UHGV virus genome: UHGV-0356621
Reading direction: 5' to 3' (one strand)
Source: a virus
DNA: 43,895 bases
The notes beneath the pieces were generated by a model that was not told the origin of the DNA, did no database searches, and saw only the letters and a program-made list of their open reading frames with translations. This document shows, piece by piece, positions 1-6,264 of this stretch. The first letter of the stretch is position 1; each line of letters opens with the position of its first letter. The translations under genes and the position numbers were made by a program.

Positions 1-166
1 TTTATTAGAAATTTGCACTTAAATCAAAAAGTTACGGACAATCCAACCACCAATCAATAAATTAAAGGGCACATTAAAGTACACAATATTTGTGCCCTTC
101 TCTGTTTCTTTCCCGTTATCAGCTAGCTGGAAACTTTTTATACAGAGTTGAGAGCCCTACTCCATA
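1..166. repeat. Terminal direct repeat, copy 1 (matches 43730-43895, 164/166 identical)
   Basis: Aligned by eye. Mismatches are at 16 (c vs a at 43745) and 87 (t vs g at 43816). The repeat covers the region downstream of the invertase gene plus its last 48 nt, and it runs to the window edge, so its true length is unknown. Confidence 0.95.
65..99 (-). terminator. Hairpin downstream of the invertase gene (possible terminator)
   Basis: AAGGGCACA (65-73) pairs with TGTGCCCTT (91-99), a 9-bp stem with a 17-nt loop. On the minus strand it is followed by the U-rich TAATTTATT. It lies 20 nt after the invertase stop. Confidence 0.45.
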
Positions 167-667
167 CGTTTTTGATACGCTTTGTCGTGATTCACCGGTT
201 GCCATCCGCTCCCCCATTTCCCGCCATTGCTCATCCGTGAACTTAGGCCTGCGACCACCAACTCGCCATTTTGCCCTGGCTACGGCCAGCCCTGCTAAGG
301 TACGTTCGCTATTAAGATCAGATTCATATTGTGCTGCGGAAAGGATGTTACGAAAGTTATAGCGGCCGCTGGCTGTTTTGAGATCCACGCCATCGGTAAT
401 ACTGCGGAAGTTGATACCCTTTTCCTGTAGCTGCTGGAACATCAACAGCGCATGCAGAACGTTGCGGCCTATCCTGTCCAGCTTCCAGACCACCAGTTCA
501 TCCCCCGACTGCATAGTGGCGATCAGCCGTTTTAGAACCGGCCGATTCGATTTCCGCCCGCTGGCATGCTCTTCAAAAATTTTCTCACAACCCGCTGACT
601 TGAGCGCCGTTAGTTGCAATTCAGTGTCCTGGTGGTTTGTTGATACTCGGGCATAACCGTAAATCAT
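119..667 (-). CDS. Serine recombinase, Hin/Gin/Pin/Cin-type DNA invertase
   Basis: MIYGYARVSTNHQ... carries the catalytic Ser motif, then VVWKLDRIGR, and a C-terminal HTH ending GLSTLYKK, as in Pin/Gin. The length of 182 aa is typical. AGGAG lies 4 nt upstream of this ATG; the track ORF (to 766) has a non-homologous N-terminal extension. Confidence 0.9.
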   Translation of the reverse strand: MIYGYARVSTNHQDTELQLTALKSAGCEKIFEEHASGRKSNRPVLKRLIATMQSGDELVVWKLDRIGRNVLHALLMFQQLQEKGINFRSITDGVDLKTASGRYNFRNILSAAQYESDLNSERTLAGLAVARAKWRVGGRRPKFTDEQWREMGERMATGESRQSVSKTYGVGLSTLYKKFPAS

Positions 668-671
668 GGGA

Positions 672-698
672 TTTCTCCTGTTATGAAAACAGGAGAAA
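672..698 (-). promoter_or_regulatory. Perfect 11-bp inverted repeat (TTTCTCCTGTT-atgaa-AACAGGAGAAA) covering the invertase Shine-Dalgarno
   Basis: Read directly. In the mRNA sense the 3' arm AACAGGAGAAA contains the SD and ends 4 nt before the ATG at 667. Confidence 0.7.
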
Positions 699-846
699 CG
701 GCGAAGCATCACCAGATTTTTGATGGTTATAAAAAAGGTTCGTTTAGAACTGGAGGGATGGTGCATGACTATGAAAGACGATGCTATTTAGATAGATAAA
801 CGGCGGGTCTCACTGGTGTGCGGTGATACAGCAAAACCCGTATAGA

Positions 847-1287
847 CTACACCTCTGGAGGAACAGGCCAGTTAACATTCTCGGGGTCGATTGTTACATC
901 AGCCTCTTTAACCTCATTTTTATAGGCCAGCCACGCTGACAACTTCGCTCTGTTGGCGTCGCTGATTTCACCGAGCATCAACTCCGTTCTCCAGTCGAGC
1001 ATAGTGGCGTCAGCTTGATTCAGTAAATGTTGGCGATAGCGCTCTGCTGCGGCCAGTAACTCATCGTAGGTTGGTGTCGGGATATCAACCCATACTGGCT
1101 TCGAATTTTTCGCCCCCAATATTTTCCCAGCAGGAGGAGTTACGCGCCAATATTTCTCGGCATCTTCATTTGAGACCTCAGTTGCATCTTCTGGCCATGT
1201 ATTTTCTGAATATGTGCCATCAGATTTCCATGAAGCAGGAATGAATGAGAGTAATGAGGGAACAAAATATGCGACTGTTTTTGTCAT
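847..1287 (-). CDS. Tail fibre assembly protein (Tfa/U-like chaperone)
   Basis: It lies immediately downstream of a tail fibre gene. The C-terminal half (YDELLAAAERYRQHLLNQADATMLDWRTELMLGEISDANRAKLSAWLAYKNEVKE) is the typical Tfa motif pattern. Confidence 0.8.
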   Translation of the reverse strand: MTKTVAYFVPSLLSFIPASWKSDGTYSENTWPEDATEVSNEDAEKYWRVTPPAGKILGAKNSKPVWVDIPTPTYDELLAAAERYRQHLLNQADATMLDWRTELMLGEISDANRAKLSAWLAYKNEVKEADVTIDPENVNWPVPPEV

Positions 1288-1288
1288 A

Positions 1289-2449
1289 TCAGAATCCTAA
1301 TGCAAACCAGCGGAAACCGTCTGCTGGAGTTGCTGTTGATACCCATGAGAAGAAGAAATTGACATCAGAGTTAGAAATGGCACCAACCTGAGAAAAAACA
1401 TCAATACCGGCATTTCCTGACAAATTGGACGGGGTTGCCATTGCCATCAAGGAGAAATTCGGGAACGGTGTTGGGAAAATAACGTTTTGCACCCCTTCTG
1501 GTATAGACTTTAAAACAGCGCCCCATTGAATTATTAACCCACCAGAAACGTCTGGAATGCGGACAAAATCATTCGCTGCAAAATTTCTCTTTGGAAGAAA
1601 TGATTTCAGGCCGCTGGCATCTACCATTTTTTTAGCCGTACCCGACTGAATATCAGCGGCGGTAGCGATCGGCCCCAATCCCAAACCTGAAAGTACTCCC
1701 GCTGCATCACTCCTGCCGAGTATTGTTCTTGCGAATGCTGTCAGATCGGTTATTGCTACAGTATCTTCGCCAGTGAAGTAAGGTAATTTATTTGCTGAAC
1801 TTGCCAGGGCTGCAATGGCAGTTAAAGTTGCATCCAGTGGTTGTTTCCCATTCAGCAATTCAGTTATGCCAAGGTAGTTCACGATATCAGCAATTTTTTC
1901 TGCCGCCACGACTGTGCGCCCAACGGTTGTAATTCCAGAAAGTCTGGCTGTGTTGCTGTCGTCAAAAAAAGGAAAACTGTTCCCAATGCCATTCAGCGTT
2001 GCGAGCTGCTTTAAACCAAGGTATGTGAGAATGTCAGCAATAGTATTTTTCCCGATAATGTCACGGCCAACAGAAGTTAAATCAGTCTGCGCTGCTGTAT
2101 CATTTCCAGTGAAATATGGGAGTTTATTTGCACCTGTTGCGAGCCCAGCTAATGCCGTCAGCGTGGCGTCAAGCGCCTGGAAATCCTTACCGAACGCGGC
2201 GGACATTTTGGTGATAAACCCGTTCAGGTCACCATCATCAAGCACGTCCAGCCCGCTTTTGTTAGCGGTGTACTGCGCCAACGCTGCCGCTATAAAGCTG
2301 GCCTGTCGAATGGCTTTGTTTACCTGCGCACTGGATGCCTTTCCTGCCATGAATCCAGAGAGTAGAGCCGGAAGTGTTTCCCAGTCAGCCTGGGCTGTCA
2401 CGTTAGCGTTAGGATCAATCGCAAACGCTTTAAAGTTATTTGTTGCCAT
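1289..2449 (-). CDS. Tail fibre protein 2 (side fibre)
   Basis: The N-terminus MATNNFKAFAIDPNANVTAQADWE... is common in enterobacterial prophage fibres. There are three internal repeats of the DATLTAxAxLAxxANKLPYFTGxDT...TDLT motif. AAGGAA SD is present. Confidence 0.8.
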   Translation of the reverse strand: MATNNFKAFAIDPNANVTAQADWETLPALLSGFMAGKASSAQVNKAIRQASFIAAALAQYTANKSGLDVLDDGDLNGFITKMSAAFGKDFQALDATLTALAGLATGANKLPYFTGNDTAAQTDLTSVGRDIIGKNTIADILTYLGLKQLATLNGIGNSFPFFDDSNTARLSGITTVGRTVVAAEKIADIVNYLGITELLNGKQPLDATLTAIAALASSANKLPYFTGEDTVAITDLTAFARTILGRSDAAGVLSGLGLGPIATAADIQSGTAKKMVDASGLKSFLPKRNFAANDFVRIPDVSGGLIIQWGAVLKSIPEGVQNVIFPTPFPNFSLMAMATPSNLSGNAGIDVFSQVGAISNSDVNFFFSWVSTATPADGFRWFALGF

Positions 2450-2458
2450 TTTTATTCC

Positions 2459-2761
2459 TTAAGCCCAGACGCGAGCCAGTGTTTTCGGTGCAACCACAAA
2501 GTCGTTCAGCCCGGATAAATCGAGCGAGTCATTCATGACCCGCAAATTGGCGTGATAGCCGGGTTCGGTGGTGTACTTGATAACTTCGTTTTCCTCGCCG
2601 GAATTGATAACTTCAGCAGGAACAGTGATAACGCCGACGATATCCAGGCTGATATCAGGGTGATAAAAACCACCCTGTCCCTCATCATCCACAAACCCCG
2701 CCGCGATTAATTGCGTGCGCATTTGGTTGGCGTCATTAAAGCGCAGATATAAGTCTCTCAT
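2459..2761 (-). CDS. Hypothetical protein between the two fibre genes (possible fibre accessory/chaperone)
   Basis: 100-aa ORF whose start overlaps the upstream fibre stop by 1 nt (shared base 2761). No recognisable motif; the call rests on position only. Confidence 0.45.
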   Translation of the reverse strand: MRDLYLRFNDANQMRTQLIAAGFVDDEGQGGFYHPDISLDIVGVITVPAEVINSGEENEVIKYTTEPGYHANLRVMNDSLDLSGLNDFVVAPKTLARVWA

Positions 2762-4269
2762 TAGCGGAGTCCATTGATTTGGTTGGGAGTTAGCAGGCGG
2801 TGCCAGATACGGAAATTGCGAATGTGGTAAACAAACCTTACGGATGTAGTTTGGTTTATATTCCCTATATACGAAACGGATTGCGTGATGTCATTAGGAG
2901 TAACGCTATGAGAGTTTGAATTACCGTTGTAGTAGTTTGATATCCTGCCCCTTTCCGTTGTATGAACGAATACTCCGCTACTACCCTGGAGGCAAGGTAT
3001 ACTAATGTCCGTTGAACTTCGATACGATTTTACTGTGTTGTCGTTAACCCACCTGCAAACAATATCATTGCTTGGGCCTTGTACCTTAACAACTTCAATA
3101 TATCCATCGGAAGCCTGTAAATATTTAGGGAAAAATTCAAATGCCAAAGTTCTGTTGAATAGCGTTGCAAGAGTAGGGTATCCACAGTTTTCTTTCGGGA
3201 TTTGCCAGTAATCAGCAGCTCTTGTAACTGTAGTTGCGGCCGTCGGGATATAGGATGTTGGGAATGGGCTATCTTCTAATTGTGCGCCCCAGGCGTATAA
3301 ACCAGATACGCCATCTCCGGTATAGATTGTTGACACACCATTTGCTAATTGAATGCGAATAACTGTTCTCTGACTCGCTCCGGCTGTGAAAACCATCCAG
3401 ACACGGTATATGCCATTTCCGAAATCATCAAAACCACGATCAACAAATTGAGCACCATGGCCAGGCCCAACCCAGGCACCTGCAGCCGGGTCAAAGAAAA
3501 CGCCTGATGTACTACCAGAAGCAACACGCAGATATAAATTACGCGGGCTGGTGTGAGCTTTTACGAAAACCGAATAACAATAAGTTGTTCCTGCTGTTAA
3601 AATAATATTGCGGTCTTGTGCATAGTGTTCAATGGTAGGGGAGGTACTCTCAATTATAAGCGCCATCGTTTTATCGCCGCGAGGCGAGTCGCCGCTATTA
3701 TTCGTTGTGGTAACGTCTTTCCCTGCGTCCCACTGTTCTGAATATGTATACAGGTTCGTAATCTGATGCTCAATTAAAAGCCCCTCTTTCTCAAAGCGCG
3801 GCTCATTAATTGCCGCCGTCTTCAGCACACCAGATTTATCGATGTACGTCGCCGTCGTTGAGCGAGTGAACGTCATCGACTTAGTGGGCAGAGGGTAACT
3901 TGTGCCGGCCACTGTGATTGTGTCCGCCGGCGCGATCCCGGCCAGCAGGCGAAGGTCATCGGACAGCGGCGCCCAGACATCCGGGAACGGCGCATCAACG
4001 TAAACGGTGGCGGCAGCCGAGTTCGCAGCATCAGCTGCGCTCTGGGCTGCTGCAGCGGCTGAACTGGCTGCAGCCTGCGCCGACTGGCTCGCTGATTGCC
4101 CTATCGCAACTACGTCGGCTTGTAGTCCGGCAAGCGTTTTAGCTTTTTTGCCCGTTCTGGTCGTAACCTCCTTACTGCTGGAATTTACGACCTCATCCAG
4201 AGTCTGCTGGTTATCAGCAAAGTCACGCAAATCGCTGGATGGTACTGAGTTATTTGTATTGTAAGGCAT
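2761..4269 (-). CDS. Tail fibre / receptor-binding protein 1
   Basis: It follows the baseplate genes. The N-terminal Ala/Ser/Gln-rich shaft is SASQSAQAAASSAAAAAQSAADAANSAAA. The C-terminal two thirds (about 2761-3700) are visibly more AT-rich than the flanks and rich in beta-strand-like sequence. Confidence 0.7.
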   Translation of the reverse strand: MPYNTNNSVPSSDLRDFADNQQTLDEVVNSSSKEVTTRTGKKAKTLAGLQADVVAIGQSASQSAQAAASSAAAAAQSAADAANSAAATVYVDAPFPDVWAPLSDDLRLLAGIAPADTITVAGTSYPLPTKSMTFTRSTTATYIDKSGVLKTAAINEPRFEKEGLLIEHQITNLYTYSEQWDAGKDVTTTNNSGDSPRGDKTMALIIESTSPTIEHYAQDRNIILTAGTTYCYSVFVKAHTSPRNLYLRVASGSTSGVFFDPAAGAWVGPGHGAQFVDRGFDDFGNGIYRVWMVFTAGASQRTVIRIQLANGVSTIYTGDGVSGLYAWGAQLEDSPFPTSYIPTAATTVTRAADYWQIPKENCGYPTLATLFNRTLAFEFFPKYLQASDGYIEVVKVQGPSNDIVCRWVNDNTVKSYRSSTDISIPCLQGSSGVFVHTTERGRISNYYNGNSNSHSVTPNDITQSVSYIGNINQTTSVRFVYHIRNFRIWHRLLTPNQINGLR

Positions 4270-4297
4270 GGATATTCCTTGAACGATTCACAGGAAA

Positions 4298-5071
4298 TTA
4301 AAACGGCGAATCCCATGCTCCCCGATCGAAACCGGAAACATATTCATCATCGAGGTCGAAACCGAAAAACTGATATCCAGCAGATGGCCTGATAATTTCA
4401 CGGATGCGAACGCCAGCGGGCTTAATAGTCAGATAGCCATTTTTTATTACCCACACCATTTCATTGCTCAGGTCATCAATCGGATTATTGAAATACTGAG
4501 AGGGTGTGTAATCCGCCGGGAGGTCGATAAACGGCCCGCCATTTATAGCCGAGTCTAAAATAAGCCTGTCTGTTGGATTGATAATCGCGTCAGGGTCAGC
4601 GAGAACCCAGACAGACTCTGTCATGTCCAGGTTATCAATTATCGCCATCCTGATGCCGGAGCCAGCCAGCGCCACATCCAGAATATCCGGTATGCTTTCG
4701 TTGCGGCCGTCCCACTGGTTCATTGCCGCCTTGGCATTAAGCACGACACGATAAGTATCGTCGCTTAGCTGCATCAGGCCTTCATCCGGGTCAAATGGCC
4801 CCTGCCAGTTACCGCGATCCCACCCAAGGCTGTCTGTGTCCCAGGAGAAGTAGACGCCGGTTATCGGCGTAGACACCTGCCTGCTGCGGCCGATCCACTC
4901 CCCCAGGATATCCAGTTGGACACCGATGGCTGTGTCCAGGTCAAAGCTGTCAATCAGCCCACCAGTTGCAATATAGGTATCAGTCAGCGGGCGGGTGATC
5001 AGGTCAATGTGCTGCGGGAAGAGTTGCCGGGTCGCGTGATAGTTTGTGATCAGCTCGGTATATTTGCTCAT
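4298..5071 (-). CDS. Baseplate/tail protein (DUF2612-like, gpI position)
   Basis: It lies after the baseplate J-like gene with a 4-nt overlap. FDLDTAIGVQLDILGEWIGR resembles the DUF2612 family (recalled from memory). Confidence 0.6.
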   Translation of the reverse strand: MSKYTELITNYHATRQLFPQHIDLITRPLTDTYIATGGLIDSFDLDTAIGVQLDILGEWIGRSRQVSTPITGVYFSWDTDSLGWDRGNWQGPFDPDEGLMQLSDDTYRVVLNAKAAMNQWDGRNESIPDILDVALAGSGIRMAIIDNLDMTESVWVLADPDAIINPTDRLILDSAINGGPFIDLPADYTPSQYFNNPIDDLSNEMVWVIKNGYLTIKPAGVRIREIIRPSAGYQFFGFDLDDEYVSGFDRGAWDSPF

Positions 5072-6264
5072 GAGGCGGTCACCTTGATGTTTGCCACATC
5101 GCAGTGCGCCGCCTCATCGAACAGAATGGTGATATTGGCTGCTGCGGTAGTGGAAGCGCTTTTCCCGACCTTCAGAGAGGTGATGTCGTAGAACTTGCTC
5201 TCCCCGCCGCTCATTACGCCCAGGTTAGCCGGAGAGTAAACCCGGCTCAGCAGCACGGGGTCGCCGATGCGCAGCGAGTTTATATATTTCGCCACCTCTG
5301 CCTTAATTCTGTCCGCCGTTGAGGTGGTGTAGCCAGGGTAAGTGGTTAACGTGATATCCACGAAAACCTCTACCACTTTCGGGCGCGAGAATCGTATTTT
5401 CTTGGATTCACCATATCGGCCCACCAGGTTTACGGTTGTCGTGCCGAATGGTGTTGTCCCAACATCCTTTTTACCGGCGATCACCGTGGCGATTTCAGTG
5501 GCATCGCCGCCGTCAACGATGCAGCACATAGAATGCGCTGGCAGACCGTTGGAATCGGTAGTTTCAGAGTCGTTCTCATAACTGCGCAGTCGGGTTACGC
5601 CAGTGACGTTAAGCAGCGCCCCGTCCACACCCTCCATGGTGGTTTGTAATGTCAAGGCAGTACTGCGGGCCTGCCGTTCGCGCAGCTGAGCGTCTGTTTC
5701 GCCACTTTCCCCCACGGTTGCTGCAGCCGGGTTATTCACTGTTCTCCACCCGCGCGTCGGCGAGGCTATACGATTTATGGTGTTAGCCAACGCCACCACC
5801 GGGCCAGAAATAGAGCAGGTGGCGGTAACTGTGATAGACTGGGTTTGCGGGATAATCACGCTGGCAGGCAGGTTCCAAACTGTGCCGTTCGCATCACGCA
5901 CACTGCCAGCGGTGATCTGCGTGCCGACGTCGCCTTCAATCACTACGTCTGCCGTGGAGTTGGTCGCCAGCTTCCTGGTAATGCCGTTGATTTTGACGTT
6001 ACTGGACAGCGCCCGCCCCATGCTCGTACTGGGTGAGAACGAGTTATAGGCAGCGATACTGGTGTTGTTCGCGTCATGGATTCCCAGCGCGTAAATCGCC
6101 AGCATTTGTCCGTCTTTGCTGTCTGGTTCGAGGTAGGCATCACTACCGTAAATCTGCCTGAAATAGCTGGTCAGTGTATCAAGGATTGTCTGGTAATCAG
6201 GCGCACTAATCCCCTGGGCGGTTACCGTTGCCGATAGCCCCAGCGTGTCGAGGTTCAAAGCCAT
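5068..6264 (-). CDS. Baseplate J-like protein
   Basis: 398 aa with a GETDAQLRERQARSTAL motif typical of the gpJ/gp47 family. It lies between the W-like and I-like genes. Confidence 0.75.
   Translation of the reverse strand: MALNLDTLGLSATVTAQGISAPDYQTILDTLTSYFRQIYGSDAYLEPDSKDGQMLAIYALGIHDANNTSIAAYNSFSPSTSMGRALSSNVKINGITRKLATNSTADVVIEGDVGTQITAGSVRDANGTVWNLPASVIIPQTQSITVTATCSISGPVVALANTINRIASPTRGWRTVNNPAAATVGESGETDAQLRERQARSTALTLQTTMEGVDGALLNVTGVTRLRSYENDSETTDSNGLPAHSMCCIVDGGDATEIATVIAGKKDVGTTPFGTTTVNLVGRYGESKKIRFSRPKVVEVFVDITLTTYPGYTTSTADRIKAEVAKYINSLRIGDPVLLSRVYSPANLGVMSGGESKFYDITSLKVGKSASTTAAANITILFDEAAHCDVANIKVTAS

Follow-up and report, generated by a model that had tools for sequence, protein, structure and literature searches.

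The 43,895-nucleotide virus genome UHGV-0356621, which we call the window (the whole stretch of DNA that was analysed), carries close to its first position a gene for a Gin/Pin-type serine DNA invertase, next to a tail-fibre gene and the gene for a tail-fibre assembly chaperone, tfa. A first-pass annotation, made from the letters alone, had placed the invertase at 119-667, tfa at 847-1287 and the fibre gene at 1289-2449, all on the minus strand, and Pfam and PHROG matches confirm all three families. Our reading, which we hold with moderate confidence, is that this region is a Din-family tail-fibre inversion module in which a two-allele segment has been replaced by a one-allele cassette, and which is now probably non-switching. 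An invertase with seemingly nothing to invert would then be a known system in a fixed, derived state. The locus itself is probably an ordinary, fixed one-allele derivative of that system, and the most useful by-product of the analysis is the pattern of boundaries that the cassette displays in other phages.

Hybrid crossover sites at the fibre gene and the invertase

The 386-amino-acid (aa) fibre matches Pfam Gp53-like_C, the PHROGs concur, and the protein has two parts. Its constant N-terminus, amino acids 1 to about 143 (2020-2449, minus strand), is common to a family of prophages with a DUF2612 baseplate. This part has more than 2300 homologues that are 88-95% identical to it and continue into many different C-termini, and PHROG 11303 spans amino acids 1-150. 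From about amino acid 145 (GLKQLATLNG...) to the end (1289-2017, minus strand) there is a variable, cassette-borne C-terminus with the gp53-like_C receptor-binding domain. The 146-aa Tfa has the Caudo_TAP domain (PF02413, E 1e-22) and matches PHROG 188. Its gene lies directly 3' of the fibre gene, with the start codon 1 bp after the fibre stop codon, so that both domain and position are those of a Tfa chaperone. The first-pass annotation saw no oppositely oriented alternative fibre end or second tfa, and we agree: none of the plus-strand open reading frames (ORFs) in 668-2460 matches a Pfam family, and neither a further fibre tip nor a further tfa is therefore present there. The largest of these ORFs (1914-2462, 182 aa) is antisense to the fibre gene.

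The same annotation reported no pair of crossover sites, and on this point it was mistaken. There are two 26-bp sites with matching central dinucleotides, one by the invertase and one inside the fibre gene. Site R (727-752) reads TTATAAAAAAGG-TT-CGTTTAGAACTG, with its core TT at 739-740, and is the one next to the invertase. Site L (2006-2031) reads CTGCTTTAAACC-AA-GGTATGTGAGAA, with its core AA at 2018-2019, and falls within the fibre codons ...LTYLGLKQ.... Because the AA of site L is complementary to the TT of site R, the sites are inverted relative to each other.

Both sites are positionally homologous to those of sister prophages. Three such prophages of Escherichia coli (ET896, WEM25 and GPEC60-12-649; L001, L015 and L016) share with the window the att80 integration site, the invertase (99%), the outer half-sites, the constant fibre part and the DUF2612/baseplate-J tail module. 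They differ from it in having two-allele cassettes, canonical inner halves GGTTTGGGAGAA and no counterparts of its 502-aa and 100-aa tail proteins. Their arrangement, which ET846 (L017) has as well, is fibre, tfa, an inverted tfa' and an inverted alternative fibre tip. The segments of the first three are bounded by TTATAAAAAAGG-TT-GGTTTGGGAGAA and TTCTCCCAAACC-AA-GGTATGTGAGAA, and their inner half at site R is GGTTTGGGAGAA. In ET846 the fibre-gene site is identical, TTCTCCCAAACC-AA-GGTATGTGAGAA, the inner half at site R is CATTTGGAAGAA, and the GGTTTGGGAGAA-type inner half is found at site L only; the inner half TTCTCCCAAACC at site L is common to all four two-allele loci. The window's outer halves (727-738 and 2020-2031) are identical to those of these four loci and of E. 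coli M172-1 (L018), and homology to most relatives ends at 745, with that to E. coli relatives restarting at about 2006. The window's sites are hybrid, with an outer half that is canonical for the prophage family and an inner half that is cassette-borne and degenerate. An earlier suggestion that the sites could be divergent and cryptic is borne out for the inner halves, whereas the outer halves are canonical.

The centres of the two sites, AAAGG-TT-CGTTT and AAACC-AA-GGTAT, deviate from the consensus AAACC-NN-GGTTT, which is why they were overlooked by eye. A generic inverted-repeat search of 1-6000 does not list them among its 25 longest pairs, since only the 2-bp core and about five flanking bases are mutually complementary. 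Their halves are not near-perfectly symmetric. The inner halves GGTTTAAAGCAG and CGTTTAGAACTG finish CAG and CTG, not (G/T)AA, and score 3.1 and 1.6 on a half-site weight matrix, against 12.8 and 13.7 for the outer halves. With this matrix the two sites rank first and second in the window (15.9 and 15.3; the next is 7.5), scores that are not above the background of shuffled sequence (mean 11.6, maximum 19.9). The matrix was trained partly on the window sites' own halves and we used it only to exclude additional sites; the case for the two sites is built on positional homology and the cassette boundaries and not on the matrix score. The scan found no third full crossover site above the shuffled background in the window, which leaves the idea that the enzyme acts elsewhere without support inside the prophage. 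For other genomes we suggest looking for hybrid crossover sites at homologous positions, not for perfect inverted repeats.

The layout is that of the G segment of Mu with its invertase Gin (also the C segment of P1 with Cin and the P segment of e14 with Pin). In these systems, as in the window, the invertase gene is placed just beyond one end of the segment, some 70 bp from the nearer site (72 bp separate the core of site R from the invertase ATG, and 67 bp separate gixR from gin in Mu). The other site is within the fibre gene, where the constant part gives way to the variable part, and the inverted sites are 26 bp long with a 2-bp core. Mu has two tip/chaperone sets (Sv-U and U'-Sv') and two perfectly symmetric sites, TTATCCAAAACC..GGTTTACAGGAA, whereas the window has one set and one degenerate half per site, and we found no evidence of flipping for it. 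The proposal that the alleles were lost and the invertase orphaned is half right: only one fibre-tip/tfa set is present, but both sites are still there. The term shufflon, which the first-pass annotation used, is inapplicable, as it belongs to the tyrosine recombinase Rci with multiple 19-bp sfx repeats and the enzyme here is a serine resolvase/invertase with two sites only.

The fibre around site L contains repeat units of the form KLPYFTG...DLT...LG[LI] (1864-1894 against 2011-2041, and about 1676-1687). The motif encoded at the crossover site, YLGL, returns as NYLGI 147 nt downstream and then as SGLGLGP, where the DNA (CAATCCCAAACC, plus strand) resembles a lone canonical half-site. This half-site-like CAATCCCAAACC may be the fossil of an earlier junction point.

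A one-allele cassette shared by unrelated prophages

Measured from core to core, the cassette takes up 739-2019 (1.28 kb) and consists of the fibre C-terminus, tfa and a 106-bp tail. The tail, which is non-coding and lies between site R and the tfa stop codon (741-846), has the same sequence, as far as the core dinucleotide, in ten loci whose phage backbones are unrelated; in L024 and L025, whose one-allele cassettes have diverged, it is about 70% conserved. In the public collection, 71 blocks contain the exact Tfa protein, and we read ten distinct contexts of it (L003-L012). The same cassette is present in Mu-like prophages with a downstream invertase (L005, L007, L008), in P2-like prophages without one (L010, L012), in DUF2612-type prophages at thrS, also without one (L003, L011), and in a DUF2612-type prophage beside the window's own type of invertase (L009). 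In L006 it stands beside a frameshifted invertase (L006 5620-6174), and in L004 the same cassette end lies at thrS with a different fibre N-terminus joined to it.

The boundaries of the shared DNA fall at the cores. On the site R side, identity runs through tfa and the 106-bp tail to ...CAGTTCTAAACG-AA and ends there in all ten loci, with phage-specific half-sites such as CGTTTCCGATAA, CCTTTGATAGAA and CGTTTACGAAAA beyond the core. On the site L side, identity runs to GGTTTAAAGCAG and ends at the TT in nine of the ten, which have a phage-specific TTCTCNNAAACC-like half beyond it; L004 breaks elsewhere. The two P2-like loci (H-G pairs without an invertase) have the identical one-allele cassette and the same two boundary sequences as the window, and differ in that the cassette is followed by a sheath gene or a tail gene cluster. 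Judged by these sequence comparisons, the cassette is a horizontally mobile module with boundaries at crossover sites.

The cassette is rare but spread over several phage types. At megablast level, none of the 5,426 complete E. coli genomes in RefSeq has the exact version; it is found in draft assemblies of E. coli and Citrobacter freundii, the two hosts named for it, and in assemblies of sequencing runs. Among proteins, 22 clusters with at least 80% identity contain the fibre tip, joined in every case to an N-terminal part, which varies. Other one-allele cassettes have the same fibre-tfa-invertase layout: that of E. coli M172-1, with a pinL-type invertase, and those of the P2-like L024 and L025 (E. 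coli), which share the diverged version of the tail and the same R inner half CGTTTCGAACAG. At the three thrS loci (L003, L004 and L011, 5540-5570) the cassette is at the prophage end with no invertase, and the outer half-site CGTTTACGAAAA is kept. These three and L006 are different decay stages of one module.

We propose that a one-allele cassette of this kind replaced a classical two-allele invertible segment between the two inverted 26-bp sites, and that it was probably installed by recombination at, or a few bases from, the crossover cores. Either the invertase itself, with a quasi-site as partner, or recombination at the 26-bp sites driven by microhomology may have been responsible. Recombination by Cin at quasi-sites was reportedly described by Iida and Hiestand-Nauer in 1986 and 1987, papers that PMC4134206 cites. 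By analogy, a true site recombining with a quasi-site would leave hybrids of a good and a poor half joined at the central dinucleotide, much like those of the window.

The cassette thus gives us a natural record of a fibre tip and its chaperone moving among unrelated temperate phages, with boundaries at crossover sites. Sandmeier is said to have argued in 1994 that inversion sites serve a second purpose, as points at which host-range modules are exchanged, and the location of the cassette boundaries at the cores supports that role.

State of the invertase and orientation of the segment

The 182-aa invertase is of the pinL type. It has the Din-family domains Resolvase (PF00239, 130 bits, E 8e-38) and HTH_7 (PF02796, 38 bits, E 1.5e-9), matches PHROG 125 'DNA invertase' (E 2e-73), aligns with Gin over residues 1-181 (E 1e-55) and is 99% identical to WP_000639140.1. 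Y5, R7, S9, D64, R65, R68, E121 and R122, conserved in at least 140 of 150 diverse representatives, are all kept; E33 stands at a position that is either acid (73 E, 71 D among the representatives), and the GGR arm and the helix-turn-helix recognition helix LSTLYKK are intact. There are two changes relative to the common E. coli allele. One, P54S, is in a variable column. The other, G134W (codon at about 266-268), replaces the last residue of helix E, a glycine that precedes the minor-groove arm and corresponds to G137 of gamma-delta resolvase. This position is G in 137 of 140 aligned diverse representatives (98%), W in none, and G in all seven relatives, so the window enzyme lacks a conserved glycine of Din-family invertases. 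W134 is also found in the only other public record of the exact fibre, a Logan contig (SRR6504918, L020). The change possibly weakens the invertase. The first-pass annotation had named mutated catalytic residues as a possible sign of an inactive recombinase; here those residues are unchanged, although a glycine that is nearly invariant is not.

One could go further and suppose that G134W has killed the enzyme, that both sites are dead and that the whole module is decaying. The glycine in question is 98% conserved and sits at the junction of helix E and the arm, and decay is seen elsewhere, in the frameshifted invertase of L006, in a decayed cassette of Citrobacter meridianamericanus (L019) and in phage phi80, with its orphan pinL and fibre pseudogene fragment. 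We find this improbable all the same, because all catalytic residues and the LSTLYKK helix are intact in a full-length ORF, and because the fibre gene and tfa are intact and presumably in use.

Another possibility is that the enzyme works in trans or imports cassettes, flipping the canonical segments of other prophages or exchanging cassettes while its own sites are unproductive. Its ORF type is intact and 99% conserved in many E. coli, also beside one-allele cassettes (L018, L009), and core-located cassette boundaries in unrelated backbones fit exchange at the sites. Hin-family enzymes, however, strongly favour intramolecular inverted sites, the prophage has no other full site, G134W may impair the window copy, and recombination based on microhomology could give the same boundaries. 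Inversion in trans is documented for Din invertases, and EC958 Phi4 inverts despite a truncated invertase (PMC4134206). On balance we consider this account unlikely. We prefer to see the invertase as a retained passenger of a conserved att80-proximal module, possibly weakened by G134W, whose residual role, if it has one, would be in trans on other prophages.

As for the segment itself, inverting 739-2019 in silico joins the constant fibre part to 16 codons (RLELEGWCMTMKDDAI) and a stop, which gives a 160-aa stub with no chaperone gene behind it. The predicted junctions are ...ACATACC-TT-CGTTTAGAACTGGAGGG... (in a shorter form, ACATACC-TT-CGTTTAGAACTGG) and ...GCTGCTTTAAACC-AA-CCTTTTTTATAACC.... 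When the 160-aa chimera was searched against 5.8 billion protein cluster representatives, it matched more than 2300 constant-part fibres and none with the new tail, and the 16-aa tail peptide, queried as a triple repeat, is absent from the same representatives. A free fibre-tip ORF of about 248 aa is not among the 22 tip clusters, all of which are fusions of 273-405 aa. The Logan contig (2.8 kb) is unbroken across both sites and in the ON orientation, with the fibre whole. Eight independent loci combine one allele with an intact invertase (the window, L005, L007, L008, L009, L018, L024 and L025), and all eight are ON, which has a probability of about 0.4% under the 50:50 ratio expected from frequent flipping. 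PacBio data show orientation mixtures of about 50:50 for such segments (PMC4134206). With no inverted junction, truncated fibre, tail peptide or free tip ORF on record, the segment has been observed in one orientation only. The first-pass annotation would have given up its orphan invertase for a pair of inverted sites with inversion between them; the pair exists, but evidence of inversion does not accompany it. We think that the segment most likely does not switch now, or does so very rarely, and that the fibre is locked ON.

Two-allele cassettes offer a contrast. One of them occurs in both orientations in P2-like prophages (SOI121 against strains 1409 and C10), and a 95%-similar one occurs in both orientations beside pinL-type invertases (ET896 against COL60J), a pair that shows both orientations and is not proof of recent flipping. 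A query with the WEM25 cassette inverted in silico found no near-identical inverted att80 prophage; with the ET896 cassette inverted in the same way, COL60J was retrieved at 95% identity. We rejected one candidate for an inverted-state product, P0070, a 160-aa truncated fibre of C. meridianamericanus, which comes from a frameshifted, decayed two-allele cassette. In L019 (CP101051, 5001-7460), where such a cassette has decayed by frameshift, both sites and an intact Gin-like invertase remain.

Several points weigh against a locked segment and a passenger enzyme. In the inner halves the core-proximal (C/G)GTTTA is still present and 9-10 of 12 positions agree with the consensus, alternates included (PMC4134206 Table 3), and the invertase-side outer halves of L005 and L006 are no better than the window's inner halves. 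A degenerate half-site is no proof of inactivity, and rare inversion may be possible. The intact invertase ORF is conserved in over 200 E. coli genomes, an argument for selection on this type of enzyme. The orientation census is small (8 loci), and clustering of the protein database at 90% identity could hide a truncated fibre in the cluster of a longer protein. The sets genome_contigs, viral_contigs and metagenome_contigs lack the cassette, and zero matches to the inverted junctions there are uninformative; an orientation-neutral pattern likewise had no match in viral_contigs or metagenome_contigs, and in genome_contigs a scan based on Tfa picked up no more than two relatives, at 65-70%.

In a rival reading the invertase flips the 1.28-kb segment as an ON/OFF switch between the 386-aa fibre with Tfa and the 160-aa stub without a chaperone. 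Virions in the OFF state would rely on the 502-aa tail protein (2761-4269). Besides the match of the inner halves to the consensus, this reading has in its favour that the two flanking sites are inverted, with outer halves that are intact and cores that are complementary, that 10 of 12 positions of the R inner half are kept in cassettes whose tails otherwise share only about 70% identity, that the inversion product is in frame and soon terminated, and that the extra tail protein module upstream is unusual. Against this, the inverted state is seen in none of the eight loci and in none of the protein searches, the Logan contig is unbroken across both sites, and G134W is present. The same cassette and an invertase also occur in single-fibre phages (L005, L007-L009), for which OFF would be a dead end. 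We doubt strongly that such a switch operates here, although it would mean more in this phage than in others because of the extra tail protein module. If it did, the stub, uncoupled from Tfa, would leave the 502-aa protein as the only receptor-binding protein, and the phage would make phase-variable use of a second fibre while carrying two receptor-binding proteins. We give a similarly low chance to the hybrid sites still working in this manner or, in a related version, to the invertase being kept to import cassettes at them; the sites would in that case be landing pads for host-range modules common to Mu-like, P2-like and DUF2612-type phages. The locked, one-allele state remains our preferred reading, and for annotation it means that an invertase beside a fibre gene is by itself no sign of a switchable prophage host range.

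The att80 end of the prophage and the tail genes

Positions 1-118, 3' of the invertase stop codon, are the prophage end beside att80, on the yciI/tonB side. The annotated attP core of phi80 would lie 6-22 bp past base 1 of the window. Over positions 1-745 the window shares 95-99% identity with the pinL region of three phages (phi80, HK225 and mEp237), and equally with DNA in more than 200 E. coli chromosomes, where this DNA abuts yciI. Phi80, HK225, mEp237 and mEpX1 have in common with the window a 95-99% identical invertase, the palindrome described below and the att-proximal DNA, and, as is probably the case in the window, their invertase has no functional invertible segment. Unlike the window, these four are lambdoid siphoviruses. 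Phi80 has one canonical site R and a fibre-tip pseudogene fragment, with no second site or cassette, whereas the window has kept both sites and a presumably working fibre/tfa pair. In phi80 (L002, 4700-4800) the canonical site R is followed by the first fibre-tip codons (LGLGEAAKRDVG...), annotated as a pseudogene fragment. The presence of the att80-proximal invertase module in both lambdoid siphoviruses and contractile-tail prophages looks like a fossil of module exchange between morphotypes at the attachment site.

The palindrome, 'IR3' in the phi80 annotation (TTCTCCTGTTATGAAAACAGGAGAA, 25 bp, 673-699), is conserved in relatives and overlaps the Shine-Dalgarno sequence of the invertase. Folded as mRNA, it gives a 12-bp hairpin in which the AGGAG is paired (655-760, minus strand, folds at -26.3 kcal/mol, z = -4.45), and it may throttle translation or be an autoregulatory binding site. 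Its outer TTCTC...GAGAA arms resemble the outer parts of the crossover sites, one base closer together. A crude scan for the Fis consensus of the recombinational enhancer, which Din invertases have within the 5' part of their gene, gave isolated matches and no pair about 48 bp apart, and a scan of 1-2600 for promoters and terminators gave no more matches than chance.

On the minus strand the genes run in the order baseplate J (5068-6264), DUF2612 wedge (4298-5071), the 502-aa tail protein (2761-4269), its 100-aa partner (2459-2761), fibre, tfa and invertase. The 502-aa protein and its partner, which stand between the wedge and fibre genes, form a module that PHROG 5939/1419 describe as 'tail protein'. 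There is a weak Laminin_G_3 match, and the C-terminus of the 502-aa protein is weakly ConA-like (lectin). The window phage appears to have two receptor-binding modules. In L001, L009, L011 and L015-L018 this second module is absent, and the fibre gene comes immediately after the wedge gene.

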